From contig CM060733.1 of NCBI GenBank assembly GCA_030704615.1, positions 6,820,001 through 6,884,000 of the forward strand: 64,000 nucleotides of DNA, read 5' to 3'. Below, one piece after another: positions 38,618-64,000 of the stretch. The DNA is from Takakia lepidozioides (Eukaryota; Plantae; Bryophyta). Below the pieces are notes generated by a model, which saw only the letters and a program-made list of their open reading frames with translations, searched no databases and was not told the DNA's origin. How positions within the stretch are numbered: the first letter of the stretch is position 1; each line of letters begins with the position of its first letter. Made by a program: the position numbers and the translations under genes.

Positions 38618-39790
38618 TGTCAAGTTAAATAAGCACAGTGTGAAAAGAGCTAGAATAAAACTAGTTATTTGTATTTAACACTTGGATTTAGGTCAAGTGT
38701 TAAATCAGGTGTCAAGTTAGTTTGACACCTGGTCCGTCTTATCTTCACGAGAGCGGCAGTCGCGCAGCTCATCTCTCTCGAGTTGAGCCTGCGCGACCAA
38801 GCTCCTGCATGCGTTTAGATTTGAGTGTGCTTATGTAGGGGTACAGGTTGTTGTGGGGTGGAGTCCCCATAGCTTGGGGTGCCCCTGGCTCGACTACTAT
38901 TTCTAAGAGTGATGGTTTGGTTTTCATGTTTTGTGTCAACAGTGTGTTCGTTGGTTTTCTATCACTCGAGAGAGATGATCTCTTACCTGTGAGTGCAAGG
39001 TAGGAGTTGAGGGTTAGCACTTGCAAGATTACCTGTGTGTAAGTAGTGCTTAGTTTGAGAAGCATATCATTGAATGTGACCACAAGATTCAGCGTGCCCT
39101 GAAACGCCTGGAGGATGACGATGCCGGAGCCGCCATTGTTATTACAGTCGCTGAAGCTACCAAGTCACCAGAGGCTTTGGAGTACACAAGGAGAGACTTA
39201 AAAAAATGCAGGAGCAGCACTGGCAAGCTGTGAACGCTAATATCTGCACTACCACAACGTCCCTAGGATGAATACAAAGTGCCTGGAGTGAAATGGATAG
39301 CTGGAGAGCTGCTCAGGCCCATACATTTTGGGAGTTAAAAGTCACATCTGTATGTTGAAGGCCCAATTCGCCAATGTGCGGAAGAGTGTGGGCATCCGAG
39401 TTTTCTAGGAAAGAGGCCAGTGCTTGGGAAAAGCTGGCTACAAGTTTTGGAGCAGGTGACGGCCAGGCCTGCGGTACTTTGAAGACGATGATGTAGAGCT
39501 TGAAGAGGGTCTGGTTTCGTTGCTGGGGAAGTAGGTGGTACGGGCATGGAATCTGGAGGACCCCGGCTTGTACGTGGAGAGTTTCGATGTGCTCTTCCCT
39601 TTCTTGCTTTCAGATGCCTTAGTTGGGTTGTGCGTTTGTTGAAAGGCCAGCTTCTGGTATAAAGATGCGGATGTGGACTCTTCAAAGTAGTGGAGAGAAA
39701 TGCGGGGAGCAGAGGTGCAAAGGGTGATCAAACTGAATGGACGGAGGGGCAACATTCTTGAGCATAGGATTTGAAGAAATGCTGTGTGAT
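38618..39790 (+). mobile_element. Diverged 5' terminal/leader region of the DNMT-Gypsy family
   Basis: Starts TGTCAAGTTA like 52730; shares TTATCTTCACG, CTCATCTyTCTCGAGTTGAGCCT, ATCACTCGAGArAGATGA, CTGTGAGTGC and AGCACTTG in the same order; right boundary approximate. Confidence 0.75.
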
Positions 39791-40783
39791 CGATGTGGAG
39801 GGAGAACACGTAAGCTTATTTTATTCAAACTTTGCCGAGGCCCCGTAGTAGAAGTTAGCTCAACAGCGTGGTGATGAAGGTTTTGGTGGGCACTTCGGTG
39901 TTTGTAACAAGAGAGACGGACAGGTACCTCGCGATATGATATCCATTGTCAACCTGAACTAGATTTGAAAGTGGATGGTTCAGATTAGAGTTAAGGATAA
40001 CTTCAGAGCAGAAGAGCATGGAAGAGCCAAGAACGGTTTCAGTTGCAGAATGGAGAGGAGGTGTTAGTTCTGGCCATGGTTCACTAGCTTACTACATTGA
40101 AAGGACGCCGAAGCGAGGAGGGAAGGGGGAGGAAAAGGCAGGAAAATGTCCTCACCAGGTTGTTCGTCATTGACTTGCACGCCACCTCCCCAGCTAACTT
40201 GCACAGTGGCAACGTTCAGGCCATGGAAGTTGCCGAGCTCACTCAGCGGGTGACATCACTTGAGAAGCGTTAAGCTCGGTACCAGCAAGTCTTGCAGCCA
40301 AGATCTCGAATTGAATCGCCAGGCTGGAGATTATGTGCGGTGAAAGTGGCAGAGAAGGTGGCCCGTCTAGAAATCTATGGCGCGCGACGTGCTGCCCTTT
40401 CTATTCCGAGTTGCTACTGTTACCAACCTTCCCGCCCCTTTCCACACGCAGCGTGCACTCTACCTAGTTCCACCGATATTCAGTCAAGAAGTTTTGGAGT
40501 GGTTCTAGGTTTCCTGGCTTCTATTAGCTAACAGGCTTTCGGAGAGCTGGGCAGAGCCGGGTGGTAAGATCACTCCGTTTCGGATCATCCTGGCAAGATG
40601 TAGAGTTTGCAGTCACAAACACAAGAGAGACAGAAATGCTCGAGTTGTCAGCGATTTCGTCCCTGAAGCCGAATTCGTGAAGCTTCTTCCGAGCTCTCTC
40701 GCTTCCATCATTGCAACAACAAACCACATAGTTTCGACTGGGTCACATTCTGGAGAAACGACTCCTTGATCAGTCCAGATCCT

Positions 40784-41057
<274 letters not shown>

Positions 41058-41507
41058 TGAGACAGCCGCCATAGCCCCTAAAGCCCATCCTTCAGCTCTG
41101 TACGCCCGCAATCAGTACGTCCGCTCTTGCCGCCCTCTCCAACGCTGATAAGCATATGCAAATTCCACCCCCTGCAGGGAGAAAGCATGACCCAGGTGGA
41201 AAAGCATATAAGGATAGGGGAAGTTTCCAAAGAGCTTATCACCTTCCTTTGAATTTTTAAATTTGAAAAGAAAAAGAAAAAAAACCCTTTGATCTAAGTT
41301 AAAGGATTTAGAGCCTAATTGGTCATATCTTTGGCAAATGAACTCCGTTTGACACAGTTTTTGAGGGGATAGCTGCAGAAAGAGGAAATCTACCTATCTA
41401 GACCTGGTTTTTGTTTTTGGGACTCTGCTAAAAATCTATGGAATTTTTAGAGTGTGAGTGTGCCATGAAAATCCACAATCCTGTTTCTAGAACCTGTTCT
41501 GGTCTAC

Positions 41508-42173
41508 ATGAGAGATAAAATCTGGGGATGTACTCCTTGTATGGCTGGGGGAAATGAGGATGTGATTGAAGGGCAGGTCTCTTCTCTTAGCCTGTGCACC
41601 AAAGGGGACAAGATTTATGTTTCCCAAGGAACTCAGACTGATTTGAGTGGAGAACAGTTGGACGAGTTGATTGCATACTGGGAGTCAGGCATTAGTAGTG
41701 GACAACAAACTGCTGTAGTTGGCGTTGAGGGCCTCAATATCGCCTTGGACAGTCAGAACTCTGTTGGAGCCAGCAGTTCTGCAGCTGTAGGTGAAATACC
41801 AAAGTGGGTGAAAGCTAGGCTTGGAACACAGCCAAAGACAACCCCGGGGACCAAGGTGTTCAGCCACAAGGCTGTGGTGTACTGGAGCAGAGGAGCAGGA
41901 GCTACACAAGTTTGTGCAATCAGACATGGTTGCAGCCGGATACGCTCTGCACAGGGCAACCACGAGCGGGGGTTCATCAGCAATGACATGTTTGTTGTGC
42001 GTGAAGGAGATGTAGTCATTCGCAATGAAGACACCCGCAACCGTCTCAAAGCTTTCGAGTTGAGAGACTATCAGGATAGTTCTTTAGTATTCAGTGAGGG
42101 AGATAGGGAGTCTTTGTCTCTACCTGGCAGAAAGAGGAGGAGGGAGCGAGGCACTTTGAGAGAAGTCTGGTAG
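41508..42173 (+). CDS. Uncharacterised 221-aa ORF, probably a transposon fragment
   Basis: ATG-initiated open frame with coding-like composition and a basic NLS-like C-terminus (GRKRRRER); no family recognised. Confidence 0.35.
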   Translation: MRDKIWGCTPCMAGGNEDVIEGQVSSLSLCTKGDKIYVSQGTQTDLSGEQLDELIAYWESGISSGQQTAVVGVEGLNIALDSQNSVGASSSAAVGEIPKWVKARLGTQPKTTPGTKVFSHKAVVYWSRGAGATQVCAIRHGCSRIRSAQGNHERGFISNDMFVVREGDVVIRNEDTRNRLKAFELRDYQDSSLVFSEGDRESLSLPGRKRRRERGTLREVW

Positions 42174-42218
42174 TTGATAGCATAGATCATGATTAGATCT
42201 TGCTTGATCGGGCTTCTA

Positions 42219-45146
42219 GTCCAGGGTGAAGCCCATGGGATATAACACTGCACCACCAACGAGGACATCGTAAGAGATCGCGTCTGTCACAATGGCCTTG
42301 GCTCGCATCACTGAGCCATCTCTAGGATGATCCGGCTGCAGTCTAATGGCCAACTGATACCATGTCATGCCGCGAGCCTGCTCTGATCCTCCCAGAGATG
42401 TCTGTATCTGGAAAGGACAAGGCTCCATATCCGCCTCCATGAGGCCCAAACCTGCAATAGCAGCTCTGCCCAACATCAGTGGCTGAGCTCCTGAGTCCAA
42501 CAAGACCCGCAGTGGACGGTACTTCTTGCCTGCCGGTCCACTCAAAGTGAAAATGCCTCCCTGGTTGTCTAACAAGACAACTCCAGGTGTCACCATGGCG
42601 CGCTCAAAGGCTGGCCTAGCTGGCAGCTCCGTCAACCTGGCAGTTGCAGCTTGCCATGGCGCAGCCGTGGCAGTCTTGACCCTCAAATCCGAGGATCCCT
42701 CTGCCACTATACCTTCCACTAACTCCACAGAAGATGAAGTGACCTCCCCACTCTCACAGAGAGTTGCTGCTAGTCTGAACACTGCATCCGACGTCGCAAT
42801 CATGGTTGCCGAGAACAGTGGGGCTTGACACACAGAGGTGGCTGCCCCCAATAACACACCGGCTGCTAGCCTTGGTAGCAGGTGTCAGTGCTGCACGTGT
42901 AGCTCTCCCCAATGGCATAGTAACCTCCGCCTCGGTAACAGTCGGGCGAGAATTAGGTGCCATGGATGGCGTTGACACTGTCTCCGCCAAGGTGAATGAC
43001 TGAGGCAGCCTCGCCTGACGGCTTGCCTCCCCACGTTGTGGATCCAACTCCATCTCTGCACCTCGTGGCTCAGGAACTCGTGCTGCTCCTCGAGTCATGG
43101 CTGCAGCAGACTCCACCTGCTCTAGTGGTAGTGCTACTCCGTACATGAATCCCATACCTCCCATATTTCCTCCCTCGGGAGCAGGAGGTGGACCATCCCG
43201 CCTGGGAGCTAGTACCGCCTGAGCTATAGCCATTGCAGCGAGCCTCTGCTCTAGCTGCTGAAGCGGTTGGCCATGCCTTGGTCAACACCCTGACCTCCGC
43301 GTCTGTGGCCATGTTGAGCTTGCCCTTGGCCTACACCTCGTGCCCAACCACCTCGTCCTCTCTGGGCTGGTCCACCTCGCCCCCGGCCACCATTGGTCCC
43401 TTGGAACTGGCCTGGGCGCAACTCAAGATGCAAGTCATAACACTGGGCATCTCCATGCCCATACTTGCCATAATGCCCACACTGCAACTATGCAGGCTGT
43501 GTTTGTGTCTGCCTTTTGCCACTCTCTGGGCGCTCTCTCTTGACATGAGGTCCTCCACATGTCCAACATATCACCCCTGGTTGCTGTTGGCCTACAAAAG
43601 ATGTCACGGGCCTCTGTACCTGAGGTCCCCTATAAGCTCCATGGAACTTGGGTTGGGAAACCTTGCCCCCTGACCACGCTGTTGGGCAGTCCCTTGTGCC
43701 TGTGGGCTGACAGCTGTGCCCCGTGCAGGCATGTCCTTGCCAAATCCAATTGTAACAACTCGCTCCTCCACCATGTTGAGCTCAATCCGCTCAGCCATCA
43801 GAAACACATCTGCTAATGTGGGTTGGGCTGCTTGTAACAGGGTTGCATCTCGCACCCTTCTCTTGAGCTCCTTGTCCAGAATTCCATACCAAAACTGGAT
43901 TGCCTGAGCTTCAGTAACCCCATCAAGCGCCTCATACGAGTGTACGCCTCTCGCAGGCTCTCACTGGGTTTGCGCTGGAAGTCTTGCAAACTTCGCAGCT
44001 TCTCTGTCCGTACACCTTGGTAGTTCCTCCGCAACTCCTGGAAGAACTCCACCACCGGGTTGAATCTAGGCACATGTGTTGTAGTCGTGGCAGGAGGAGT
44101 AGTAGCACCTTTTGAACTGGTACCACCTGCAGAAGTACCAGCACTACTTGCTCCACTACTAGTGCTGGCAGTGGGAGCTATTGGTACTGATGCAACTACT
44201 GGTCGCGTCGTGCCTCGAGTAATGGAGACGTAGTCAGGTGATCAATACATCCTCCACTCCTCAATCTCTGCTTCATGTCCTCGCCTAAACTCGTGGTAAT
44301 CGTCCATAGGCGGGCCTTCCAAATGCTGGAACAGTCCCTTCCATGCCATGAATGGGGTGAATAGCTGTGGATTGCGCATCTGCTGCAAATCACACCAGCT
44401 GTCGAACTCCTGGATAAAGTCATCCAACTCAATTGTGCCCACAGCTCCAGAGTACCTACGAGGCCCCTTGGTAGCTCCATACATCTCTCCCATATCGTCC
44501 CACAACAATGGCGAATGAAAGTGCACACCTGTTGATAAATCCTCCGAGTCTGTGTCTGACTCTACAGTAATTGAGGGTGGCGGTGAAGGTGGTCTGAACC
44601 GAATACCTCGTCTTGTGAACCCACTCTCACTGTTACTGCCTGTAGCCGTACTCCCCTCAAAACCCTTGGGTAACTTTGTAATGACACTCACAATGTGCAC
44701 CTCCTCCACGTGACACTATAAGGCTCTAGTACTAATTTAATAGTGACACGGGTGGGCACCTGTTGCAGTTTAAGGGTCATATCCCAATGGCTCAGGGCAC
44801 CTGCACCTGCATCCACCGCAAGAACTCCTATGGTTGGCTGGTCATCAACCCAGCCTCACCATAGAAGAAACACTGGTGGTCTTGCTGGTCATCACTCCAG
44901 CCTCATCACCGACAACATACTCTAGGATTGACCGGTGATCAAATCCGGCCTAATCCCTATGAAAGCAAGCGCCCACACAAAACCAACATGGCGCACAGTC
45001 AAGCATGCAGGTGTTGGGGGGGATCCAAACACAAGAAATCAAAACATCAACACCCCCACACCAAAATCCAGCTGCAATGCTGATCCTGCAGAATAGCCCA
45101 GCCCAAAACCCCGGACTGACTGGCCTCCACCAAGAGAGGCTTTGGC
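42219..45146 (-). mobile_element. DNMT-Gypsy copy 1: inverted leader-gag-protease segment
   Basis: Reverse complement of ~54541-57261; GPRRYSGAVGTIELDDFIQEF, LRSLQDFQRKPSESLREAY, Zn-knuckle remnants, VLLDSGAQP. Confidence 0.93.
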
Positions 45147-45160
45147 AACTACAAGTACAA

Positions 45161-46375
45161 CAGCATCCTACAGGCCTGGATGGCAGTCAGGCGATGGTCG
45201 CCGTGCACAGCTCCCTGTGACATTCATTGGGGGTATAGCGGCTGCCCAGCGGGGCAAGATGCCAACACTAGCCGCCTTTACAGCTGTAGTTAGTTGGCTT
45301 GGAGAGTTGCTGGAGGGCAATGCCCATGCAAAGGATGTGCCACCTCCAGCAGAGCAGGATGACATGCATGGTATGGCGGAGTTGTCTGCCATGGTTGTTC
45401 ACACTCCATTGTGGGGTACAAGCAAAGATTTGCAGCAGGTTGCTGATCGACGGGTGCAACAAGCCTGGGTAGAGGCTTTTGTACCGTCAGGAGAGGAGGA
45501 GAGTGCGTGTATTGCACCAGGACCACCTCAGTTGTCACCATTGGATACCACACCTATTGTGTGGCAGTATCCGGATGAAGGCATTTGCCTTCTGGACTTG
45601 TTTGGCGGGATCAGCACCGGATTGGCTGCTGTGCTACAGGCAGGTGTGCGGGTAAGGCGTTACCTGTATGTGGAGGGATGAGACTGCACGACGCGTCTCA
45701 CTGCGCCATGTGGCTCAGTTGGTACAGCAGTACCCTGACTTATTGCATGTGTCTGCAGTTCGTGGATACCAACAAGCCTTACCAGCAGACATTTCCTTGT
45801 TGGGGGCGCAAGATTTGGAGCAGGTTGGCTCCATTGATCTGATAGTGGCAGGTTGGCCCTGCCAAGGGCATTCATCAGCCGGGCATGGCAATGGATTGCG
45901 AGACTCGAGGACGGGTCTGTTTTGGGAGATGGTGCGGGTTTTGCGCCACTTGCAGCTTCATCAAGCTGTATCTCCAGCATACATCTTGGAGAATGTGCCA
46001 CTGATGGGTGATTCTCGGGCCAGGGTGATGGCCAGTGTGCATCAAGTCCGGTCGTGGCTTGGAACAGCAGTGCTGCTGGATGCAGCTGCAGTGGGATCAC
46101 GGGCTCATCGTCCACGGCTTTGGTGGACTAACTTGATGCCACCCGCATTGCTCAAGCGTGCATATGATAGGGTGCAGCGGCCAGCCCACCTCACCGTGGA
46201 TGGCATTTTGGACACAGGGAGGCAGTCTCAACGTGTGAGACACGATGACCGTTCGCCTTTGGCAGTGGTCAACAGGGTGGGTCAACCACGAGCAGCATTA
46301 CCTACACTGCTCAGTTTCCCAGGATCCCATGATTTTCGGGATGGTGGACCTGGCCTCTTGTGGGATAGCCAGGTG
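45161..46375 (+). pseudogene. DNMT-Gypsy copy 1: linker plus C5 DNA methyltransferase motifs I-VIII, truncated before IX-X
   Basis: LLDLFGGISTG (D at 45595), AGWPCQGHS (PC at 45857), YILENV (E at 45989), AHRPRLWWTNL; one frameshift at ~45675. Confidence 0.93.
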
Positions 46376-46414
46376 CAGCGATGTAGTTGTGTAGCGATAT
46401 GTATGCGCACGACA
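46376..46414 (+). mobile_element. 3' terminal 39 bp of the DNMT-Gypsy family, joined directly to the truncated DNMT
   Basis: CAGCGATGTAGTTGTGTAGCGATATGTATGCGCACGACA is identical to 62469-62507. Confidence 0.92.
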
Positions 46415-51848: not shown

Positions 51849-52744
51849 CGCAGGGGAGGAACCTACATAAGTCTATCTCAATACATCCTTATGTTGGGCC
51901 TTGGCATAGTAACACGCAGGAACCTCCACTGGGCAGGCGAGGTTCGTGTGGTTTGTCCTGTCGGAGTTTATGGAGGTCTACTAGAGGTCTAGCGGTCTAC
52001 GGAGACTAGTCTACTAGAGTAGCCTAGCCCCAAAGAAAAACCCATTATCAAATATCGGAAATTCGGAAAAAAAATCGTTAAAAACCATGATCATAACCCG
52101 CCATAACCCTAATCCATAACCCTAATAATCCAGCAGCACCAGTAAACCAGGACCACAAACCACCCATACCAACCACCATACAAACCACCATACAAACCAC
52201 TAGCAGAGAAGCAGCAATGCATTGAAACACCTAAACAGCTTTAATCAACTCAAACTAATTGAAACAGCTTTGGAACCACATGAATTGAAAAGAGATGCTC
52301 CGCATTAGACAAGATAGCACACTCACGAAACATGACATGCAAGAATCAAATGGTGCTCTATAACCTCTGGAACGAAAGCGAGTGAGGAAGAGAAGCAAAC
52401 CAACAGCGACGTGGGCGATGCTGACCAACAAAAGCAATAGCAAAACAAAAAGAAAAGTAAATCAACAAACAGAACAAAGAGAGAATGAGAGAATGACATC
52501 AAACCACATGCGTAAACGAGAACATTACCTGCTAGATGCGTGAGCCATTTTGGTGCCCCTGTTGCTGAACTTGAAACGCCTGACCCTTAAGCTTCCTCCG
52601 CTCCGCTCTCCCTTACGCTCTGTTTCCTTCCCGTCTCCTGTCTGCACTTGAATCCGCTGTCTGCTTCATTTCCTCCACTGCATTCTCACGCTGCACTGAA
52701 CTGCACTCTCTCTTCTCTCAGCTCTCACGTGTCAAGTTATTTTA

Positions 52745-53110
52745 CCACTAGTGTGAAACTAGCTAGGAAATAGCTAGTTTTTACATATTGACATTTGGGA
52801 TTGGCCCAAGTGTCAATCCAGGGGTCAAGGCAGATTTAGGCCCTGGAGTGGTTATCTTCACGGCAAGCGCGGAAGGCTCATCTTTCTCGAGTTGAGCCTC
52901 ACCGCACCTAGCTATGGCGCCGTAGTGTGGATTCCCTATGGCGTGGGGTGCACTTGGCTTGACTTGTATTTGAGTGATGAGGTTATATATGCATGAGTTT
53001 ATGCTTCAGATTTATGAGCTCGTGCTTGTATTCTTCTTCTTTATCACTCGAGAAAGATGAGCTCGTATCTGTGAGTGCCAGATACGAGTTAGTTGTAGCA
53101 CTTGTGGTTT
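52745..53110 (+). promoter_or_regulatory. Structured 5' terminal region (hairpins and two potential pseudoknots)
   Basis: Stems 52756-65/52771-80, 52787-99/52805-17, 52876-92/53046-62, 53062-71/53079-88; equivalent stems with compensatory changes at 38640-39025. Confidence 0.7.
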
Positions 53111-53764
53111 TTGCTTGAGAATGAGAGAAACCAAGTTGTTATGCAAGGAGCACCGTGGAGCTCTTGGTTGTTAGAAGCGGAGGCGATGTGGGTTACGAGG
53201 TGGTAGACCTTGGTATTCGATCTTCAGCTTCAGAGATGAAAGCACCATGCTGCAGGTAATTCCAGAGCACCTTGATGGTTTCAGATTGTGTACATGCATG
53301 AGCAAGCACGATTGGAAGAGGACCAGTCAAGAGCAGGTTATAGTGGCTTTGGTGGCAAAGCTGAGAACTGGACTTGGGAATGCGAGCTTTCATTGTGTGA
53401 AGGATTGCAAGACCAAGCGAAATGGCTGATTTGGCTTGGGGCAAATCAGTGCACTTTGTGGAGTATGGTGAGATTGGGTTTCAATCTCGAGCTTCAGCAT
53501 TGAGAGGGCTCTTGTCATGGCAAGAGCAGGGCTGGAACAGGAGCTAAGAGGTGCGGCAAGGCCATGGAATGTGCACCTAGGGTTTCAGAGCTTGGAAGAA
53601 GAGCTCTTGCACCACAAGAGAAGTGTCTTGTGGCTGGAAATGTAAGCCTTAGGGTTTCAAGAGCTTGGCAAAGGCTGTGGAGTGCTTAGTCTTGTCTTAG
53701 AGAGCATCAAGGAGCCAAGGAGCCAAGGAGCCAACATAGGGGGCTGATATCTCGTGTGTGAAGA

Positions 53765-54112
53765 GGTTGCATGTGTGGAGCATGTATTCAGCTCATTGAA
53801 GCTTCCATCTTCAAGCTTGGAAGGCAAGCAAGGAAGAGGGAAGGGCTGACTTCCCTTATGTGAGGGCAATGCATGTGTGGAGCATGCTATCAGCTTGGTG
53901 AAGGCTTGCACTTTCAGGTGTGGGAGTGCAAGAAAGGAAGGAAGGGGCTGGTTTCCCTGTAAGGCATGTGGAGCATGCTTTCAGCCTGCTGAAGCTTGTA
54001 TTTTCAGGTTTGTGGGTGCAAGAAATGAAGCAAAGGAGCTGATTCTCTTATGGTGAGAGTGGGGCATGTGTAGAGCATGCCTTCAGCCCATTGAGGCTCT
54101 TGTTTTCAAGCT
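53765..54112 (+). repeat. Leader tandem repeat, ~95-100 bp unit, 4 copies (GCATGTGTGGAGCATGC..TCAGC)
   Basis: Units start near 53769, 53871, 53964, 54064. Confidence 0.8.
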
Positions 54113-54136
54113 TTAGAGAGCTAGAACGGAAGGTCT

Positions 54137-54325
54137 AGGGCTGTGACGGGCTGTCCCTGTGGCCTTGGGGGCTGTGACGGGCTGTGAGGGGCCGTGACAG
54201 GCTGTGCCCATGGCCTTTGGGGCTGTGAGGGGCTGTGAGGGGCTGTGACAGGCTGTGACCAGTGAGCTGTGTGGGCCTGTGCTGGTCTGTGGTGGCCCGT
54301 TGACCTGTGGACGGCCTGTGCTGAC
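54137..54325 (+). repeat. 10-bp minisatellite (GGGCTGTGAC/G) in the retroelement leader
   Basis: Direct inspection. Confidence 0.85.
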
Positions 54326-54967
54326 TCGTGGAGGCACTGGTGGACTGCCTAAGGACTGGCATGTGGTCTGGAAGGCCGAATTTTGAAGCTCGTGGAGGGC
54401 GGTTTGAGGAGTATCTTCATGATATTCCCATGGTCATGTAAGTGAGGGAAGAGAGGAGAGGAAGAGTGTTGGGATGAGGGCATGCCGGGGTTAGGCATTG
54501 CTTTAGCTTCTCTTCCTCGTAGTTTCCACCCTCTCATTAGGCCAAGACCTTTCCGTAGGTGGAGGCAAGAGTCAGTCCGGGTTTGGGCTGGGGTGTCCTT
54601 GCAAGAGCAACACCGTGGGGTTGTTTTGGTGTGGGGAGTTGTCGTTCTGATTTCTTGTGTTTGGATCCCTCCATACCTGCATGCTTGACTGTGCGCCATG
54701 CTAGTTTTGTGTGGGCGCTTGCTTTTATAGGTGATTTGATCACCGGCCAGTCCTAGAGCATGCTGTCGATGGTGAGGCTGGGGTGATGACCAGCCAGACC
54801 ATCATTGTTTCTCCTGTGGTGAGGTTGGAGGTGATGACCAGCCAACCATAGGAGTGCTTGCGGTGGATGCAGGTACAGGTGTAGGCTATGTTAGGAACTT
54901 AGTATTCCAAACCATAAGCCGCAACAGGTTCTCTACCCGGTTACCTTGTGGAGAGGGGGTTAGGGAC

Positions 54968-56580
54968 ATGTTCATGACGGTTGAGTGTCAACACGGAGGT
55001 GCCACTAGTTGCTGGGGACAGTGCCGGTTGAGCACTAGCGATACTAGTGGGTACACGAGACGAGGTGTGCGGTTTAGGCCACCTTCACCTCCTGTGTCTT
55101 CCACGGAAGGTTCTGATTCGGATTGTGAATCAGGAGGACTCATACCGGCGGTGCAAGTTGTTTCTTTGCCATTGTTGTGGGACACAATGGAGGAGATGTA
55201 TGGAGCTACCAAGGGGCCACGAAGGTACTCTGGGGCGGTGGGCACCATCGAGTTGGATGATTTTATCCAAGAGTTTGATAGTTGGTGTGATTTGCAGCAA
55301 ATGCGCAATCCACAACTATTTACGCCGTTCATGGCATGGAAAGGGCTGTTTCAGCACCTTGAGGGGCCGCCTATGGATGATTACCATGAGTTCAGGCGGG
55401 GGCATGAGGTTGAGATCGAGGAGTGGAGGATGTACTGGTCACCCGACTATGTCTCCATCACTAGGGGCACTAGAGCCACAAGGGCAGTGGCTACACCTGC
55501 CGCTGCCGGCAGCTTCAGCAAGTAGCAGTGGAACTAGTGGACTGGTGGTACAGTAGCTACGACGTCCACCCAAGGCACTACCGCACCAGCACTAGCACCC
55601 GTGCCTGCCTTCAACCCTGTTGTGGAGTTCTTCGAAGAGTTGAGAGGGAACTACCAAGGGGTGAGGATAGAGAAGTTGCGGAGCTTGCAAGAGTTCCAAC
55701 GGAAGCCGACCAAGAGCTTGAGGGAGGCTTTCACTCGCATGAGGCGCTTGATAAATGTAACCCAAGGGGTTACGGAAGCTCAGGCAGTCCAATTCTGGTA
55801 TGGGATATTGGACAAGGAGCTGAGGAGAAGGGTGCGGGATGCAACTCTCCTACAAGCGGCCCAATCCACCTTAGCAAATGTGTTTTTGCTGGCAGAGCGG
55901 ATAGAGCTCAACATGGTGGAGGAACGAGTGGTCATGGTGGGATTTGCTAAGGAGACACCACGGGGTAGTGGTGCTCCTAGCCAACCACTACCTCAACATG
56001 CTCAAGGCAACAAGGGGGCTCAGGTGAAGCTCAGGGAAGGACAGAGAGGACCTCAGATGCAGGGGTCTCTCCCTTCATTTGCTGGCCAACAACGGGCGGA
56101 GGTGGTGTGCTGGACATGTGGAGGACCCCATGTCAAGAAGGATTGCCCAGAGGGAGGCAAAGGGTCGGCACATGCACAGCCTGCACAGTTGCAGTGTGGG
56201 CATTGTGGCAGCACGGGCATGGAGAGGCCCAGTGTTATGGTTTGCATCCTGAGTTGCGCCCAGGCCAGTTCCAAGGGAACAATGGTGGCCGGGGGCAAGG
56301 TGGAGCAGCCTAGAGAGGACGAGGTGGCCAGCCACGAGGCCAAGGGCAAGCTCAACGTGGCCAAGGACGCGGAGGTCAGGGTGTTGACCAAGGCATGGCC
56401 AACCGGCTTCAGCAGCTAGAGCAGAGGCTTGCTGCCATGGCTACAGCTCAGGTGGTACCGGCTCTAAGGCCGGATGGTCCACCTCCTGCTCCCGAGGGAG
56501 GAGATATGGGAGACATGGGATTCATGTGTGGAGCAGCACTACAACTAGCGCAGGTGGAGTCTGCTACATGGGTAGCACCA
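54968..56580 (+). CDS. gag: Gag-like protein with two Zn knuckles (frameshifted in this assembly)
   Basis: Retrotransposon gag-like LRSLQEFQRKPTKSLREAFTRMRRL; CWTCGGPHVKKDC and CGHCG..GHGEAQC; start codon uncertain (54968 or 55187). Confidence 0.85.
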
Positions 56581-56879
56581 CTACCTAGTGTTGCCAAGGC
56601 TGCGGCAGCTAGTGTGCTGCTAGGAGCGGCCACATCTGTGTGCCAGGCTCCATTGTTCTCGGCTACCATGATTGCGACGCCGGGGGTAAACCAGCTGAGG
56701 TGTTCAGGCTGGCAGCTACACTCTGTGAGAGGTGGGAGGTTACTTCATCTTCTGCGGAGATAGTGGGAGGTGTATTGCCGGAGGGATCCTCGGATTTGAG
56801 GGTCAAGACTGCCACGGCGGCGCCATGGCAAGCTGCAGCTGCCAGGTTGATGGAGCTGCCAGCTAGGCCAGCCATTGAG

Positions 56880-57330
56880 CGCGCCATGGTGACATCTGGA
56901 GTTGTCATGTTAGACAACCAGGATGGCATTTTCTGTTTGAGTGGACCGGCAGGCAAGAAGTACCGGCCACTGCGGGTCTTGTTGGACTCGGGAGCTCAGC
57001 CATTGATGCTGGGCAGAGCTGCTATTGCAGGCTTGGGCCTCACGGAGGCGGATATGGAGCCTTGTCCTTTCCAGATACAGACGTCTCTGGAGGATTGGAG
57101 CAGGCTCGGGGCATGACACGGTGTGAGTTGGCTATCAGACTACGGCCGGATCACCCTACAGATGGCTCAGTGATGCGAGCCAAGGCCATTGTGATAGACG
57201 CAGTCTCATACGATGTCCTGGTTGGTGGGGCAGTGTTGTACCCCATGGGCTTCACCCTGGATTTTTGGGAGGAGTCAGCTTCCTATAGGCCTGCATGGCA
57301 GTCAGGGGAAGGCCGGCGTGTGCAGCTCCC
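56880..57330 (+). CDS. Retropepsin-type aspartic protease
   Basis: RVLLDSGAQPLML (D at 56985) and YDVLVGGAVL. Confidence 0.88.
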
Positions 57331-57693
57331 TGTGACGTTCATAGGAGGAGTTGCGGTTGCCCAGCGAGGCAAGATGCCGACACTAGCAGCATTCACAGCG
57401 GCAGTGAGTTGGCCTAGAGAGTTGCTTGAGGGCAATGCTCATTCAGAGGATGTACCACCTCCGGGAGAGCAGGATGACATGTATGGTATGGCGGAGTTGC
57501 CTACCATGGTTGTTCAGACTCCATTGTGGGGCACGAGCAAGGATTTGCAGCGGGATGCTGATCGACGGGTGCAACAAGCCTGGGTGGAGGCTTTTGTACC
57601 GTCAGGAGAGGAGGAGGAGAGTGCAGGGATTGCACCAGGACCACCTCAATTGTCTCCATTGGACACCACACCTATTGTGTGGCAGTATCCGGA

Positions 57694-58650
57694 TGAAGGC
57701 ATTTGTCTTCTGGACTTGTTTGGCGGGATCAGCACCGGATTGGTTGCTATGTTACAGGCAGGTGTACGAGTTCGGCGTTACCTGTATGTGGAGAGGGATG
57801 AGACTGCACGACGCGTTTCACTTCGCCATGTTGCTCAGTTGGTGCAGCGGTACCCTGAGTTGTTGTCGGTGTCTGCAATTCGTGGATATCAGCAGGCCTT
57901 GCCAGCAGACATTTCGTTGCTGGGGGCGCAGGATTTGGAGCGGGTTGGCTCCATTGATCTGGTAGTGGCAGGTTGGCCCTGCCAAGGGCATTCATCAGCC
58001 GGGCATGGCAATGGATTGCGAGACTCGAGGTCGGGTCTGTTTTGGAGATGGTGTGGGTTTTGCGCCACTTGCAGCTTCATCAAGCTGTATCTCCAGCATA
58101 CATCTTGGAGAATGTGCCACTGATGGGCAATTCTTGGGCCAGGGTGATGGCCAGTGTGCATCAAGTCCGGTCGTGGCTTGGGTCAGCAGTGTTGCTAGAT
58201 GCAGCTACAGTGGGGTCACGGGCTCATCGTCCACGGCTATGGTGGACTAACTTGATGCCACCCGCACTGCTCAAGCGTGCATTTGATGGGGTGCAGCGCC
58301 AGCACATCTCACAGTGGATAAATTCTGGACACAAGGAGGCAGTCCCAACGTGTGAGACACGATGACCGTTCGCCTTTGGCAGTGGTCAACAAGGTGGGTC
58401 AACCACGAGCAGCATTACCTACACTGCTCAGCTTCCCAGGATCGCATGCTTTCCGAGATAGTGGACCTGGCCTCCTGTGGGATGCTCAGTTGCAGCAGTT
58501 AGTGGAGCCTAATGCTGACGAGCGTGAGCGGGCAATGGTTTTACCAATGGTACCACGGCGGTGTCGTCTCTTTCTGAGGCATCACGTCGTCAAGTGTTGG
58601 GGCAAGCAATGGATCTCAATTGCTTGACCTGGATTATCAGCTTGGCTCTC
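57694..58650 (+). CDS. C5-cytosine DNA methyltransferase domain, DNMT3-like, motifs I-X
   Basis: I LLDLFGGISTG (D at 57713); II YVERD; IV DLVVAGWPCQGHS (PC at 57977); V GLRDSRSGLF; VI YILENV (E at 58108); VIII AHRPRLWWTNL; IX ERERAM (58520); X RRQVLGQAM (G at 58600). Confidence 0.93.
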
Positions 58651-59099
58651 GCTGAGCAACGCAGAGTGCGGAGTACACTTCCCTCAATGGTCTCTCTGCC
58701 TACCGAGACGGTACAGGCAGTGAGTGGGGGAGCATGTGAGGACCACGGGGTGCATGCATCCATGGCACACGTGGGAGGTGCTCGAGGTTCAGAGGGAGTT
58801 GGCAGCCAAGGCGGCTGTGATGGATGAGGTTGGGGATTCTTCTCGGGTTGAGGAGGTCCTCAAGGATGAGATGATGGGGCAGGATGAGGCTTGTCATTGA
58901 CTGAGCATGCAGGAGTACTGCTCAAGAGGTTGCAACATAGCAACCACTGGACGCGTCCTCTACCTCTAAGCCCACTGGACTTAAGGTTGCAGTTACGGAG
59001 GACAATTGGGAGCCTGACATTGGACCCATTGTCACCGGAGGAGAGAGACGACGTATACGGCGGTTCCCGAGGGCTTACAGGAATTGCTTTGCCTTCAGT

Positions 59100-59800
59100 T
59101 TGAAGGACTTGGGAGCACTGAAGGGTCAAGAGATCCGTATTGAGTTGGCCACTGACACGCCAATCTTTCGGAGACCCTATAGATACAGTGACATGGAGAG
59201 GTCTTTGATTCAGATGAGGACTCAAGATCTCTGGGAGGCGTTTGGTGGAGCTCTCTGGTGGAGAGTATGCTTCAGCCACAGTGATGCCAGCCAAGAAGGA
59301 TGTCTATGGCAATTGGACGGAGAGACGTATGTGCGGTGATTACCGGCCTGTAAATCGTCAGACCAAGTCCGATAAGTATGCCATGCCAACACCAGAGGAG
59401 ATCTTTGATGCCATCGGGCATGCTAAGGCCTTTAGCACTTTGGATTTACGATCCGGATATCACCAGTTGCCAATCAAGGAGGCGGACAAGCAGAAGACGG
59501 CATTTGGGGGATCAATGAGCACGGCAAGGATTGCCTATATCAGTGGCGGTTCTTACCATTTGGGCTTAAGAATGCTCCTGCAGAGTTTCAGAGAGTCATG
59601 GATAGGATTCTAGCAGGGGTGGACTTTGCTCGGTGCTACATAGATGACATCATCATCTTTAGTGTTACGATGGAGGAGCATGAGAGACACCTTCAGGTGG
59701 TATTGGAGCGCTTGAGAGCGCACGGATTGAAGTTGCATCCGGGGAAGTGCAAGTTTTTCCACACCAGATTGAGTATCTGGGTCACATGATATATCCTGGA
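59100..59800 (+). CDS. pol: Reverse transcriptase (Ty3/Gypsy type)
   Basis: RRMCGDYRPVN, FSTLDLRSGYHQ, PFGLKNAPAEFQRVMD, CYIDDII (YIDD 59637-59648). Confidence 0.97.
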
Positions 59801-60039
59801 GGATTGGGGGTACAGCAGACTAAGGTAGAGGCCATTGCACAAATTCCACGCCCCACGGATGTGAGCCGAGTTCGAGCTTTCATGGGGTTGGCAAACTATT
59901 ATAGACGGTTTGTCAAGGGATTTAGTACCATTGCAAAGGCTCTAACCAAGCTGACCAAGGTGGACCAGGAGTGGCAGTGGGAAGATGAGCAGGAACGAGC
60001 TTTTCAAGAGCTCAAGGCGAGGTTGACCTCGGCGCCTAT

Positions 60040-60440
60040 CTTGAGACGACCTATCAGGGGGCGTCCCTTTCAGCTGCATACGGATGGAGCATGCTGGGGC
60101 TTGGAGCGGTGCTCACATAGGTGGATGATGAGGGAAGAGAGTTCGTAGTGGCTTACGCTAGTCGCTCGAACAACGCTGCAGAGGCTAAGTACAGCTCATA
60201 TGAGGAGAGTGCTTAGCTGCAGTGTGGGCCGTGGCACACTTCAGGTGCTATCTATACGGCAAATTTTCACCCTTGTCACGGATCACCAGCCACTCAAGTG
60301 GTTGATGGAGTCAGACAAGCTTACGGGGAAGCTTGCACGGTGGGGCACTTATACTCCAGGGTATGACTTTCAGGTTGTGCATCGACCAGGTTTGGTCAAT
60401 CGGGATGCGGATGGATTGAGTCGCAATCCATGCATGAGCC
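60040..60440 (+). CDS. pol: RNase H
   Basis: PFQLHTD, VVAYASRSNNAAEAKYSSYE, FTLVTDHQPLKWL, NRDADGLSR. Confidence 0.93.
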
Positions 60441-60799
60441 AGCAGGATGACACTGGAGCTCGGTGGCATGGTGAGACGGACGAGGAGATGGTGCCGGGAT
60501 GGCACGCATCTGCATTTTTGTGTATCTTGGCATCGGGAGGTCAGATTGGACCTACAACAGGGATGACTATAGACGGAGTGTCTGAGGACCCTGAGGCTAG
60601 TGATGAGCTAGGTGGTGCCAGAGATATACATGAGGATTCGGCTGTGTTGGACTACCTCCGCACGGGAGACACGGCAGCCATTGTGACTGGCAGGGAGAGG
60701 GATCGGATCCTGCAACGAGCCAAGAGGTTCAAGTGGGAGGGGATACACCTACTTCGAGTGTGGGAGGATGGTCGGGTGAGGATTGTGCCTCACCCCACA

Positions 60800-61860
60800 C
60801 AGCGTGCACGGTTAGTGCGGCATGCCCATGAGGAGTTGGGGCATTTTGGAGTGCGACGTACTCACAGTTTACTGCGGCAGTATTGGTGGCGTGGTATGCA
60901 TACAGAGGTGCAACAGTTCGTGGCTAGGTGCATGGTGTGTGACAGGGTGCGTGCTTCATTCAACGCCCCTACACCACAGTTGCATCCTTTACCAATCATG
61001 GGATTGGGCTACAGGTGGAGTCTTGACTTCGCAGGACCGTTGCCACTGACTATGCGCCACCACAGATATGTGTTGGTGATGGTGGAGCACTTCTCCAAGT
61101 GGATTGAGTTGGTTCCATTGCCTGACAAGGCTAGTGAGGGGGCTGCGTATGCATTCTTGGATCGTGTGTTTAGCCGATTTGGTGCCAGCTGAGGTACTCA
61201 CGGACCAAGGGAGAGGGTTTTTGGGGAGTTTCAGGCTTTGTGTGATAAAGCCTTGATAGACCACCGCACCACTTCTCGGATCATCCTGAGGCCGATGGCT
61301 TAGCAGAGAGAGTTGTTCAGACGGTGAAGAGGGGTTTGCGCAAGTATGGCTTGCAGAAGGGACACCTAGGAGATTGGGATCTTCAGGTTCCTTGGTTAGC
61401 CATGGGCTACAGGTTCAGCAAACAAGCATCACTTGCCTCCTTCTCACCATATTTCCTTCTCTTTGGCCGAGAGCCGGATTTGCCTGCAGCCATTCGTAGG
61501 GACACTGCTCAAGTCCTTAACCTTGACGATCCGGACGTGTGGGTACGTGCATGTGATCAGCGTGCAGAGTTGTTCAAGAAAGTCATGCCCATGGCTTTTG
61601 AGAACCTTGCCATTGCACAGCACCGTGATACGTTGAGGTATGCCACTATACGTGGTGGAGGATATCGTCATGGGGTTCGGAGGTTTAGCCCTGGTGACTA
61701 TGTTTATTTGCAGCAGACTGCTCCTACGACTCTGGATGTTACTGCAGGGCGTGTTATTCTGAGGGTTCGAGAGGTGTTGCCCTCAGGGGTCCTGATCTTG
61801 GAGGGTCGGGATGGCATAACTTGGAAGGACCATGTGCGTAATTGTGCGCCATGTCACCTT
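60800..61860 (+). CDS. pol: DDE integrase
   Basis: HHCC (HEELGHFG...CMVC), WSLDFAGPL, LTDQG, GLAERVVQTVK, SPYFLLFGREP. Confidence 0.95.
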
Positions 61861-61909
61861 CCCAATGTCGATGGCAGAGTTGACCCAAACTTGGCAGTGG
61901 TACCTGCAG

Positions 61910-62059
61910 GTTTGAGGTGCATGCTTGTGGGTCTGCCAAAGGGGCAGCCACCATGCTGGTGTGTGATCGATGCTCAAGGGTTGGCATATGGGATGCTTGA
62001 CACCACCTCTTGAGAAGGTTCCTGACGGAGATTGGTTGTGTCCACACTGCTTGGGATAG
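61910..62059 (+). CDS. C-terminal PHD finger on the integrase
   Basis: After correcting two 1-bp shifts: RCMLCGSAKGAATMLVCDRCS.GWHMGCLTPPLEKVPDGDWLCPHC, a C4HC3 pattern. Confidence 0.85.
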
Positions 62060-62308
62060 TGGCAGTGGACATGACTGGAGGCAGCTAACAAGACATGGGA
62101 GGCCAAGCTCATAGGAGTCAATACATGAGATCCCAAGCTCAAGTTCACAGGTTGCAAGACGGCGACTAACGATGGGGCAACTCTTGCACCCGCCCTCTTG
62201 ATCTATCGAGTTTGAGTGTAGTAGGGATAGTGGTGGAGGACTTAGTGAGGCTATGGTCACTATCACATCTTGTGGCTACCTTGACTTAGAGGGACCTAAG
62301 CACCAGCT

Positions 62309-62507
62309 AGGGGGGCGATTGTGTGGACTAGTGACTGCCATAGTGGGCAGCATAGTGGCAGCCTAGTGAGTGACTAGTTGTAGCCTAGTGGTTGGACTAG
62401 TGGCTGGACTAGTGGTGGACTAGTGGTATACTAGTGTGTGGTATGCACATGTGTTGTGTGGTTTTGGACAGCGATGTAGTTGTGTAGCGATATGTATGCG
62501 CACGACA
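62309..62507 (+). other. Polypurine tract (AGGGGGG, 62309-62315) followed by a 188-bp TG...CA terminal segment rich in ACTAGTGG repeats
   Basis: PPT-CGAT-TGTGTGG... as expected at a 3' LTR start, but no second copy at the 5' end. Confidence 0.65.
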
Positions 62508-62910
62508 CACGGCACCCTGCACAACACAGTCTCTGCTCTTCACGCTCTCCGCTCTTCAAAACTCTCTCTTTTCTAGCGCTATTCGGTCTTACCACTTCCG
62601 TAGCGCTTCCGCGTACACAATGGAGTGGTGAAAGGGTGGGCTGAACGACCACACCCCTTATATGGTGCCGTCGCAAAGGATCTGAACCACCGCGTCCTTT
62701 CAAAATCGAACAGTCGCGCGTGTTCCATCCAACATCCATGCAAATATCATCCAATTCATCATTTCCATTCTATCCATCCATTTTACAAATGACTAGATGA
62801 AATGAAAAAACAGATGAATGAACGAGAAAATATGACGTTAAGGATCCCTTGCACAGGATCATCAATTATAACCCCGTGGGATATTTCCCACACCCCACAC
62901 ATGACGATAA

Positions 62911-64000
62911 ATGAAATGTACAAGTCAGATCCTCTTGCGGCGTTTTTCCGCTGCAGTGGAGGTTCCGGTGATCATGATTTTAGAGACGGGTCAAAAAGTG
63001 TTTCTTACTCTTCCCGGGTCCTCATCTCCAGTAGCCACTGGGGACTGCCTTAATGTCTCCGGGGTTGGGACTTGTCATGGACAACAATTATCTTCCTCAA
63101 CCATTTCAGTGGTTCTCATCTCTTGTGATGAAGCACAATCATTATGTCCTCTTCCTTATGGACATATGGATGCTGACACCTTGCAGGAGGCCATTGGGAC
63201 CCCGGTGATGTGGAATGTTGGCGAAGTTCTTGCGGAGAATAACGAGTATCAAGGAGGGCCTGACATGAATCCTGATTTTATGCCGGAGACAAGAGATACT
63301 GCCGAGAATTCTGATGACGACGAGGATGAATCAAAACACAGACCATCGAAGAGTTCCGGGAATCCGAGCGGAGGACTCGAAAGAAACAACTGGAGAAACT
63401 TGCAGTGCGTACTGTTGGGTGATGATGGGGGTGCACTATTCGAGGGGAGGATTCAAGCCTGCATTCCGGACGAGGTGATCCTCAATGACAAACTGGGAGA
63501 GGACAATGTTGGAGTTCTTGTCACCAGAATACTTTCTGGAGGTTCTGGATCTTTGATGTCTCTTGTAAAATGGCCTTCAACAAAAACACGACTTTTGGAA
63601 AGTGGGAAACTACTCTCAAATGATCTGGAGAATTTTATTAGATCCTCTGACAGTATCTTGTACGAAGATCACGAGGCAGGTGTGAAGAAAGCGGCGTATC
63701 GGCATTTTACGAGAAAGAAGAGGGATCGAGATTTGGAACACTAAAAAAAAAGAATGAAGAATCTTACTCTGGAGGAAGTCCGGTCCGTGAGCAGCAAACC
63801 TTGCTGCAGACTTCACTGCTGTCAATATTTCGATTGGCGAAAAACCTTGGCTATCCGTACTTCTTTATGGGGATCCACTTTCAATGAGAGGAGATAACAC
63901 GGATTGAATGTTTCGAAACGACCTCTCGCAGGGCATACGTTACGATTGAGGGTGTGGATGTATGTGAGACTGCTTGGTGGACAATTCATGGAATTGGCAG
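62911..64000 (+). pseudogene. DNA-transposon protein; 277-aa ORF then a disrupted Cys-rich continuation, possibly the N-terminus of a Sola-like transposase
   Basis: ORF 62911-63744, then KPCCRLHCCQYFDW..R...W and VTIEGVDVCETAWWTIHGIG; runs off the window; superfamily tentative. Confidence 0.5.

Follow-up and report, generated by a model that had tools for sequence, protein, structure and literature searches.

Positions 52730–62507 of the plus strand in the DNA analysed here (the window; 64,000 nucleotides of Takakia lepidozioides) are occupied by copy 1, a dead member of a multi-copy family of Ty3/gypsy-type retrotransposons that carries a DNMT3-like cytosine-5 (C5) methyltransferase between its protease and reverse transcriptase (RT). 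Our preferred reading, favoured with modest confidence, is that this enzyme is made on the gag–protease frame, likely in capsid-scale amounts, and likely methylates new cDNA, in an element that likely integrates by the cutting of a palindrome.

Structure of the two copies in the window

Copy 1 is broken by many frameshifts and stops and has the form A-coding-B, its domains following in the order gag, protease, methyltransferase, stop, RT, RNase H, integrase and PHD finger (Table 1). The canonical Ty3/gypsy series of protease, RT, RNase H and DDE integrase was recovered by Pfam and in related loci. Cover by contigs from the host's sequencing runs leaps about a thousandfold at either edge of the element, and the empty site with a single CACG was present in contigs of runs X1, X5 and X7, which belong to three studies.

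Copy 2 is rearranged: its gag–protease part (42220–45146) is inverted, and a deletion with 4-bp microhomology extends from the end of the methyltransferase up to the last 39 bases, which are identical in both copies, while its start matches repeat A of copy 1 at 72%. Frameshifts break both window copies, methyltransferase included. Because of the inversion and the deletion, copy 2 alone is no proof of the domain order; the claim of the preliminary description that the methyltransferase occupies the same position in two diverged copies thus gets no support from copy 2 itself, but the order was seen in related loci. Copy 2 also contains captured ribosomal-protein fragments.

Table 1 Features of the two copies in the window
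Feature	Position	Strand	Evidence
Whole element, copy 1, termini TGTC...GACA	52730..62507	+	Sequence, cover in the host's runs
Left 4-bp target duplication, CACG	52726..52729	+	Empty-site contigs
Repeat A, putative right-hand portion of the true LTR (from the end of U3 through R and U5), ends in CA	52730..53046	+	Junctions in other copies
Predicted self-primer, likely transcript 5' end	52876..52892	+	17-nt perfect inverted repeat with 53046–53062; fold z -8.6
Primer-binding site, immediately downstream of repeat A, pairs with the self-primer	53046..53062	+	Sequence pairing
Tandem repeats (102 bp and 51 bp), 5' untranslated region	53769..54261	+	Repeat analysis
Gag with zinc knuckles, broken	55187..56420	+	58% identity to Marchantia P0004 residues 1–344; weak Pfam Retrotrans_gag, E 0.0045
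Aspartic protease, DSG 56985–56993, broken near 57090	56880..57330	+	Weak Pfam Asp_protease_2, E 0.032
DNMT3-like C5 methyltransferase, broken near 58045, 58310 and 58540	57680..58630	+	Pfam, profile and structure matches
Conserved stop TAG, then CAA CCA, readthrough-type context, RT frame	58938..58946	+	Related loci
RT, YIDD 59647–59658, broken	59007..59770	+	Pfam RVT_1, E 1.3e-22
RNase H, broken	59980..60400	+	Pfam RT_RNaseH_2 and RT_RNaseH
DDE integrase with HHCC zinc finger, broken	60790..61760	+	Pfam Integrase_H2C2, E 1.1e-14; rve, E 1.7e-5
C-terminal PHD finger, broken	61925..62053	+	Pfam PHD over cut-off, E 8.7e-6
Polypurine tract AGGGGGG(CG)	62309..62317	+	17 related loci
Repeat B, putative left-hand portion of the true LTR (beginning of U3), ends in GACA	62318..62507	+	Junctions, end of copy 2
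Right 4-bp target duplication, CACG	62508..62511	+	Empty-site contigs
Copy 2, termini as in copy 1, target duplication ATAT/ACAT (3/4 bp)	38618..46414	+	
Truncated methyltransferase of copy 2, with a break near 45675	45559..46379	+	Pfam

The methyltransferase and its descent with the element

The C5-methyltransferase motifs (LFGG 57716–57727, PCQ 57977–57985, ENV 58108–58116 and HRPR 58225–58236) lie where the preliminary description had placed them, after the DSG of the protease and before the YIDD of RT, and the domain can be read with no intron. Motifs I, IV, VI, VIII and IX–X stand in canonical order, all motifs occur in the window copies, and Pfam DNA_methylase scored above cut-off in both (E 4.5e-7 and 9.3e-14). 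The likeness to DNMT3 was borne out by profile and structure matches, with DRM, DNMT2 and bacterial enzymes more distant: the family profile favours DNMT3A (3.9e-27) over DRM2 (1.1e-12) and HhaI (2.5e-9), and DNMT3A/B were the top solved-structure matches, the structure model of relative P0046 (pLDDT 91.5) reaching a TM of 0.83 by target length with them.

Between the two window copies, the dN/dS of the methyltransferase is 0.26 (95% bootstrap interval 0.14–0.44; 215 codons; Fisher p 8e-7), well under 1 and similar to that of the protease (0.35); to judge from this pattern, the methyltransferase is under purifying selection. Among decayed related loci, its median pairwise dN/dS (0.62) is higher than that of RT (0.34–0.45). 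Relatives 50–72% identical were found in Marchantia, Calypogeia and Sphagnum, with more distant ones in algae, and the methyltransferase tree follows the RT tree across both groups: all ten elements with the methyltransferase before RT make up a single clade in each tree (support 0.995 and 0.996), and methyltransferase and RT distances correlate at 0.64 over 56 elements. The RT–RNase H proteins of the alga Klebsormidium nitens lie within the same broad RT group (support 99, in a tree without standard gypsy outgroups), while the analysis yielded no named K. nitens methyltransferase. The dN/dS and the agreement of the trees uphold the earlier proposal that the methyltransferase belongs to the element. 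As a weak test of its absence from most copies, contigs of the host's runs cover the domain to a similar degree as the remaining coding regions.

These data bear on two rival explanations. The methyltransferase could be a passenger, a fragment of a host DNMT3 captured once and now decaying, as the broken state of both window copies and the captured fragments in copy 2 might suggest, but this idea is already largely refuted and very improbable given the dN/dS, the matching trees and the 269 clusters at 50% identity (E below 1e-30). Retention of the domain as a DNA-binding or structural module, for example one that binds or protects the palindrome or the cDNA, with catalysis weak or lost, would agree with the WECQ found in place of WPCQ in 24/56 relatives, all of the algal group, and with the Klebsormidium enzyme, which produced no methylation in yeast, a result judged inconclusive by its authors (PMC5890265). 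We consider such retention improbable, since the catalytic Cys, the ENV Glu and the RxR arginines are kept in at least 90% of 58 aligned sequences and the window copies have all of the motifs.

A conserved stop codon after the methyltransferase

The methyltransferase had been described as lying inside pol, which is correct as regards its position between protease and RT, but the TAG at 58938–58940, common to relatives, closes the gag–protease–methyltransferase frame. Because this conserved stop lies between the methyltransferase and RT, the enzyme belongs to the gag–protease frame and not to that of RT. The claim that it is in frame with the C-terminus of the protease likewise holds in part: a single stop-free frame (56879–58123) takes in the latter half of the protease together with the first half of the methyltransferase, but the DSG motif of copy 1 lies in another one, with the break near 57090.

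At the homologous codon, TAG or TAA was found in 47/48 related loci, although 47 of the 48 stop-scored loci represent one family, repeated assemblies included, so that the DNA evidence for the stop comes from only about three families. Of the 47 loci with the stop, 14 have TAA, and CAA follows in 46; most continue as CAA CCC, a mismatch to the last base of CARYYA in the readthrough consensus stop-CARYYA (PMC5397192). Additionally, proteins P0002, P0004, P0005 and P0010 terminate at a similar place. In the largest family an ATG two codons past the stop would allow reinitiation. A few relatives, among them P0176 and P0299 of Closterium, have methyltransferase and RT continuous without a stop.

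Permuted repeats and the primer site

No terminal repeat or LTR pair was found at the ends of either window copy. In other copies, represented by contigs of the host's runs, a B-GC-A joint occurs at 52730 and an A-B joint at 53045/53046. These joints point to B-GC-A as the true LTR, which is opened at the palindrome GACAGCTGTC. Related copies have the form A-coding-B-A-B (L074, L038, L023 and L061) or A-coding-B, and one insertion site was found in both, as A-coding-B in L030, possibly an assembly collapse, and as A-coding-B-A-B in L072+L073. All scored insertions start at A and finish at B, with a 4-bp duplication and loss of the two central bases. Among 12 two-ended copies the duplication is perfect in nine, matches at 3 of 4 bp in two and has a damaged end in one, and a 5-bp duplication fits none of them. 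The TG...CA ends, the 4-bp duplication and the polypurine tract, which is identical ahead of B in 17 related loci, are in the canonical Ty3/gypsy range (4–6 bp).

By its sequence the primer-binding site pairs with the element's own repeat, which suggests self-priming of the Tf1 type. Two families preserve this pairing although their sequences differ, one compensating change preserves it between the window copies, and the self-priming score exceeded all 100 shuffles in 11/21 copies and failed to do so in the other 10.

In four copies, B1/B2 differ by 4–10% and A1/A2 by 6–12%, so the members of each pair probably had the same sequence when the copy inserted. Not every A-B joint is precise: L047/L049, a single insertion, retains primer-site and tract-like bases, and the joint of L023 has about 20 extra bases. 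B was found before the coding-adjacent A in 0/23 cases and A after the tract-adjacent B in 6/16. A symmetric two-LTR circle predicts A-B-A-coding-B as well, and the 0/23 counts against the scheme preferred below. It could be accounted for by a DIRS/PAT-style route, in which the RNA spans B-A-B and its internal B-A joint serves as template for the ends, without a standard two-LTR cDNA ever being end-joined; A-coding-B-A-B would then be seen and A-B-A-coding-B never, and the layout is indeed that of DIRS elements (PMC5890265). Such a route is nevertheless unlikely in view of the standard tract before B and primer site after A, the DDE integrase, the 4-bp duplications, the B1/B2 divergence being no greater than that of A1/A2, and the primer-site remnants in some A-B joints.

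Proposed life cycle

In the palindrome-cutting scheme that we prefer, the RNA would begin at the self-primer stretch of repeat A and prime its own reverse transcription, as in Tf1. RT and integrase would arise only by occasional readthrough of the stop, so that a particle would hold many methyltransferases per RT. The tract before B, the primer site after A and the B-GC-A joints suggest a finished cDNA with two complete LTRs, each B-GC-A. Integrase would make a staggered cut around the central two bases of GACA-GC-TGTC, leaving ends that resemble normally processed ones, and the true cDNA tips would join each other to give A-coding-B-A-B. The integrases of HIV-1 and foamy virus cleave a palindromic LTR–LTR junction (PMC1905944, PMC1180852), and the proposed cut at an internal palindrome to yield processed ends is similar; in these viruses, however, it is the tips of the cDNA that form the palindrome, and its cleavage is a side route, whereas here it lies inside U3 and is apparently the sole site used. 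A-coding-B copies such as copy 1 could derive, as is partly shown, from recombination of the duplicated repeats after insertion or else from a circle with one LTR. They have no 3' R region, and each would be a dead end. As the preliminary description proposed, the enzyme may be cleaved from the polyprotein, be packaged, and methylate the new cDNA or the insertion site; the predicted methylation of the cDNA before insertion would make it resemble host DNA or temper the expression of the new copy.

The enzyme could instead act on host chromatin or integrated copies, being freed into the nucleus to silence its own family or competing elements. A gag-frame protein would be made at any expression, with or without reverse transcription, the integrase bears a PHD finger, and a slowdown of transposition is among the options in de Mendoza et al. 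(PMC5890265). Yet the algal domain lies between RNase H and integrase (for example, in 29 proteins of the order RT-RH-MT-IN-PHD), a place tied to the cDNA complex, and no targeting domain joined to the methyltransferase was found by Pfam in intact relatives, so we regard a nuclear role as a minority possibility.

More tentatively, the cDNA-methylating, palindrome-cutting element may typify a green-plant-wide gypsy-type lineage with obligatory LTR-palindrome cleavage in place of integration by the ends and with tRNA-free priming, in which each bryophyte particle would be loaded with active enzyme in capsid-scale amounts and all new copies would arrive methylated; we think this broader picture possible but doubtful.

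Comparison with known elements

The closest counterpart is KnitGypsy-Dnmt3 of Klebsormidium nitens (de Mendoza et al. 2018, PMC5890265), as described there: both carry, within a Gypsy polyprotein, a Dnmt3-like domain that has no introns and keeps an unrearranged motif order, and both show purifying selection (dN/dS below 0.2 in that paper, 0.26 here) and DIRS-like split repeats A-coding-B-A-B with Gypsy domains, here in the family, the window copy being A-coding-B. The host here is a bryophyte-type land plant rather than an alga, and the conserved stop splits the methyltransferase from RT, whereas in KnitGypsy-Dnmt3 the authors assign it to the frame of RT and RNase H; self-priming, the palindrome, the 4-bp duplication, the A-coding-B form and PHD were not found in that paper's description. 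DIRS/PAT elements, including SymbioDIRS-Dnmt3, share the A-coding-B-A-B layout and the Dnmt3 domain, that of SymbioDIRS being active on CG in yeast (PMC5890265), but the present element differs in its DDE integrase, protease and target duplications. Membership in DIRS/PAT is ruled out by the rve integrase, the 4-bp duplications and the lack of any Pfam match to a tyrosine recombinase among the scanned frames.

The self-priming Tf1/sushi elements and the Tcn1 chromoviruses of mosses and club mosses likewise have primer sites complementary to their own LTRs, but, as reported, differ from an element with a PHD finger, no chromodomain match, a permuted LTR and a methyltransferase; Tcn1 also has a 5-bp duplication instead of 4 bp (PMC6317226, PMC4600332). 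The most common layout in Retand (49%) has a single stop separating protease from RT, but Tat/Retand and Ogre are listed with ordinary LTRs, tRNA primers, 5-bp duplications, an extra RNase H and no methyltransferase (PMC6317226). EpiLTRs of Euglena and Cymbomonas are also LTR retrotransposons with a cytosine methyltransferase and a chromatin reader, but have a DNMT4-related enzyme, an adenine methylase and a chromodomain, and their authors separate them from streptophyte Gypsy-DNMT3 elements (bioRxiv 10.64898/2026.05.21.726589). Troyka, described from animals only with CG...CG termini and a 3-bp duplication (PMC12440569), was rejected given TGTC...GACA and 4 bp here, as was Phygy of Physcomitrella (NCGN 4-bp duplication, tRNA-Trp primer), since 0/9 perfect duplications are NCGN.

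In the literature searched, we found no description of a land-plant element of this kind, nor of integration through an LTR-internal palindrome for any LTR retrotransposon; annotation tools requiring a terminal LTR pair would overlook such elements. The sole described Gypsy-Dnmt3 element is algal, with no demonstrated activity or role for its enzyme. The role of the methyltransferase could be tested in Marchantia polymorpha, because close relatives with intact gag–protease–methyltransferase frames (P0002 and P0004), genetics and methylation mutants are available there. If the broader picture of a methylating lineage is true, hundreds of copies per genome could add to de novo methylation in mosses and liverworts, Marchantia included, as a source so far unrecognised.

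Anatomy of the element and its two window copies

Copy 1 reads, in order, gag, aspartic protease, C5 cytosine methyltransferase, RT, RNase H, DDE integrase and PHD finger, and the preliminary description had correctly recognized a gypsy element with a DNMT3-like methyltransferase between protease and RT. This anatomy is well supported, and the family has a functional origin. Copy 1 itself is dead, since frameshifts and stops disrupt every one of its coding parts. Copy 2 shares the ends of copy 1, carries an internal inversion, and lacks everything between the end of its methyltransferase and the final 39 bases. In contigs from public runs of the host, the whole element was covered about a thousandfold more deeply than its flanks, which shows that it is a highly repeated family, contig depth, even when summed, being no measure of copy number.

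Features located in the window
Feature	Position	Strand or frame	Copy
Copy 1, whole element	52730-62507		1
Terminal piece A	52730-53046		1
Aspartic protease motif DSG	56985-56993		1
C5 cytosine methyltransferase	57680-58630		1
TAG, followed by CAA CCA	58938	RT frame	1
Terminal piece B	62318-62507		1
Copy 2, whole element	38618-46414		2
Internal inversion	42220-45146		2
Ribosomal protein uL2 fragments	40781-41006		2
tRNA-Asn(GTT) gene	34450-34527	-	

Ribosomal protein uL2 is represented in the 5' part of copy 2 by two fragments without introns (Pfam Ribosomal_L2_C, E 5.7e-5 and 1e-9), which were probably either captured from the host or brought in by a nested element. Three related metagenome loci (L012:6097-6212, L018:6107-6222 and L047:12441-13336) contain B or A pieces in inverted orientation that resemble self-integration products; the copy 2 inversion may be similar to them.

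Elsewhere in the window, positions 1-2200 hold a telomere-like array of degenerate GGGTTACA-type repeats in which GC skew is strong, and a 120-bp satellite (14.8 copies, 87% matches) lies between the element copies at 47153-48924. Three diverged direct-repeat pairs (68-84%; 10391-12617/15952-18307, 31147-32322/35055-36208 and 3830-4306/30483-30964) have no long open frames, and the open frames 41469-42173 (234 residues) and 62911-63744 (277 residues) have no Pfam match. The sole match of the Rfam scan was the tRNA gene, distant from the element.

Identity of the methyltransferase and selection on it

The DNMT3-like character of the enzyme was borne out. The copy 2 frame alone had DNMT3A as its best solved-structure match (E 7e-6); a profile of 58 relatives ranked DNMT3A (3.9e-27) above DRM2 (1.1e-12) and HhaI (2.5e-9); and the model of P0046, a 70% identical relative (pLDDT 91.5), had DNMT3A/B as its best structural match. 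WECQ replaces WPCQ in 24 of the 56 aligned methyltransferase domains, these being from the algal group.

The dN/dS between the two window copies, the check proposed in the preliminary description, was 0.26 for the methyltransferase and thus not near 1 (215 codons; interval 0.14-0.44; p 8e-7), with 0.35 for protease and 0.01-0.11 for gag. Constraint on the methyltransferase is looser than that on RT, because the median pairwise dN/dS among decayed related loci was 0.62 for the former against 0.34-0.45 for the latter. Synonymous divergence between the window copies was 0.9-1.6 in gag against 0.22 in protease and methyltransferase (window 55187-56300 against 57680-58500), a gap that suggests recombination between subfamilies. 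No single enzyme context stood out in the mutation spectrum between the window copies (CG 10/184, CHG 26/326, CHH 36/817).

A conserved stop codon before RT

Among 80 related metagenome loci, 48 could be scored for the codon between methyltransferase and RT (those in which the methyltransferase ends at most 600 bases from where RT starts), and the homologous codon was a stop in 47 of them (33 TAG, 14 TAA), although L002 is the sole separate family among these 48 and several loci are repeat assemblies. CAA directly follows in 46 of the 47 stop-bearing loci, and the proteins Marchantia P0002 and P0004, Calypogeia P0005 and P0010 end near the same place. The earlier placement of the enzyme between protease and RT stands, but the enzyme is not simply interior to pol, as the conserved stop sets it on the gag side. 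The readthrough consensus is given as stop-CARYYA (PMC5397192); the window copy and L002 match it fully, and most other loci miss the last base. The RT frame is thus probably reached by readthrough, to judge from this context; it is also possible that RT is made by reinitiation at an ATG, CTG or GTG two codons past the stop, or via splicing. A protease-RT stop is also common in Retand elements (PMC6317226), but here the stop, presumably read through, leaves the methyltransferase on the abundant side.

Ends, split repeats and a likely origin of the layout

The window copies have no LTR pair. Copy 1 has the termini TGTC...GACA between two CACG, and the empty site with a single CACG was found in contigs from three studies. 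In other host copies 62507 is joined to 52730 via GC, making the palindrome GACAGCTGTC, and 53045/53046 is joined to 62318/62319. Since a polypurine tract lies 5' of B and a primer site 3' of A, the true LTR would be B-GC-A; an element without any LTR was dropped given the B-GC-A and A-B joints in host-run contigs. The centre of the palindrome over six joints was AT in three, GC in two and AC in one; an AT centre preserves the symmetry, yet methylcytosine decay could also yield AT. Among 12 two-ended copies, including both window copies, the 4-bp duplication was perfect in nine and retained 3/4 in two, and the remaining copy has a damaged end.

Some relatives have the layout A-coding-B-A-B (L074, L038, L023, L061), and others the A-coding-B layout of the window copies (L029, L030, L034, L043, L064); five short loci (L002, L055, L075, L076, L078) showed no terminal repeats. 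L030 and L072+L073 have both flanks in common and represent the same insertion in two forms; provided that L030 is not an assembly collapse, a copy can therefore be shortened once it has inserted. The window copies may themselves have been reduced in this way.

A route to the longer layout can be proposed in which a standard cDNA carrying two B-GC-A repeats would have its tips joined, and the integrase would then cut the left palindrome around its central two bases; the product would be exactly A-coding-B-GC-A-B with CA ends and the duplication. Junction palindromes are reported to be cleavable by retroviral integrases (PMC1905944, PMC1180852). This route fits the similar divergence of B1/B2 and A1/A2 and the imprecision of some A-B joints, and it is the likely explanation of the layout. 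It does not by itself account for one imbalance: A-coding-B-A-B turned up in 6 of 16 cases, its mirror image A-B-A-coding-B in 0 of 23. Either the cut is directional or a DIRS-like copying route operates.

Predicted self-priming

Positions 52876-52892 are perfectly complementary to 53046-53062, and the 190-base stretch spanning this primer pairing folds with a z of -8.6. The pairing is preserved in copy 2 via one compensating change and in the related family with different sequence; in several copies of that family it lies about 25 bases past a TATA-like motif. Set against 100 shuffles, the self-priming score came out above every one in 11 of the 21 copies and failed to do so in the other 10, the A ends of most relatives having been placed two bases short. 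The predicted pairing matches the self-priming described for Tf1 (PMC4600332, PMC6317226). In the related family (L038:1835-1860 region), the predicted self-primer is at the same time an arm of a local hairpin and could form that structure in place of the primer-site pairing.

Distribution and relationships

Named homologues, mostly of 50-72% identity, came from Marchantia polymorpha, M. paleacea, Riccia sorocarpa, Calypogeia fissa and Sphagnum, with no fern, lycophyte or seed-plant name among the named minority of the matches in two listings (45 and 120 matches listed), which makes a bryophyte the likely host. Searching cluster representatives without a profile yielded 269 clusters with E < 1e-30. 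The 307 proteins examined include two layouts, with the methyltransferase either before RT or between RNase H and integrase; the latter includes Scenedesmus and the algal-type relatives L075:3093-4112, L076:2331-3326 and P0211, L075 and L076 having long open frames. P0340, a eukaryotic protein with a complete RT-RNase H-integrase-PHD series and 64% identity to L002, is transcript-derived, so some relatives are transcribed.

In 56 two-domain elements, compared in trees built without host DNMT3 or standard gypsy outgroups, the layout with the methyltransferase before RT formed one clade (10/10) in the methyltransferase and RT trees alike, and distances in the two trees correlated at 0.64. That the enzyme belongs to the element, as first proposed, is supported. 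The RT-RNase H tree, likewise without these outgroups and with P0446 left out, grouped the window copy with Marchantia and Calypogeia within a wider group containing Closterium and Klebsormidium. In a further methyltransferase tree (P0004, P0017 and P0005 compared; P0039 left out), Marchantia and Sphagnum formed a cluster (support 94) that left out Calypogeia, also a liverwort, a grouping that would reflect either old parallel lineages or horizontal transfer; the copy 2 branch is inflated there because its residues 1-38 are out of frame.

Relation to known elements

Membership of Troyka (CG...CG ends, 3-bp duplication) was ruled out by the TGTC...GACA ends and 4-bp duplication, that of Phygy by the absence of NCGN among nine perfect duplications, that of DIRS/PAT by the rve integrase and 4-bp duplications, and that of Tcn1 by a PHD finger instead of a chromodomain and a 4-bp rather than 5-bp duplication. 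Neither a land-plant description of such an element nor split repeats in integrase elements were found in the literature searched, mostly open-access and exclusive of Repbase, and the passages found in PMC11982613, PMC6453930, PMC9033089, PMC12344493 and bioRxiv 10.1101/363937 describe no bryophyte elements; PMC12344493 does note that retrotransposon DNMT3 is present in streptophytes, with reference to the 2018 paper of de Mendoza et al. That paper describes a Gypsy element of Klebsormidium nitens with Dnmt3 and DIRS-like repeats, the enzyme of which was inactive in yeast, a result its authors considered inconclusive (de Mendoza et al. 2018, PMC5890265); a 2026 preprint names the element streptophyte Gypsy-DNMT3 (bioRxiv 10.64898/2026.05.21.726589). 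As read from its sequence, the present family differs from the known Gypsy-DNMT3 in its land-plant lineage, in an enzyme that a conserved stop leaves on the gag side, in predicted self-priming, and in an LTR apparently opened at an internal palindrome.
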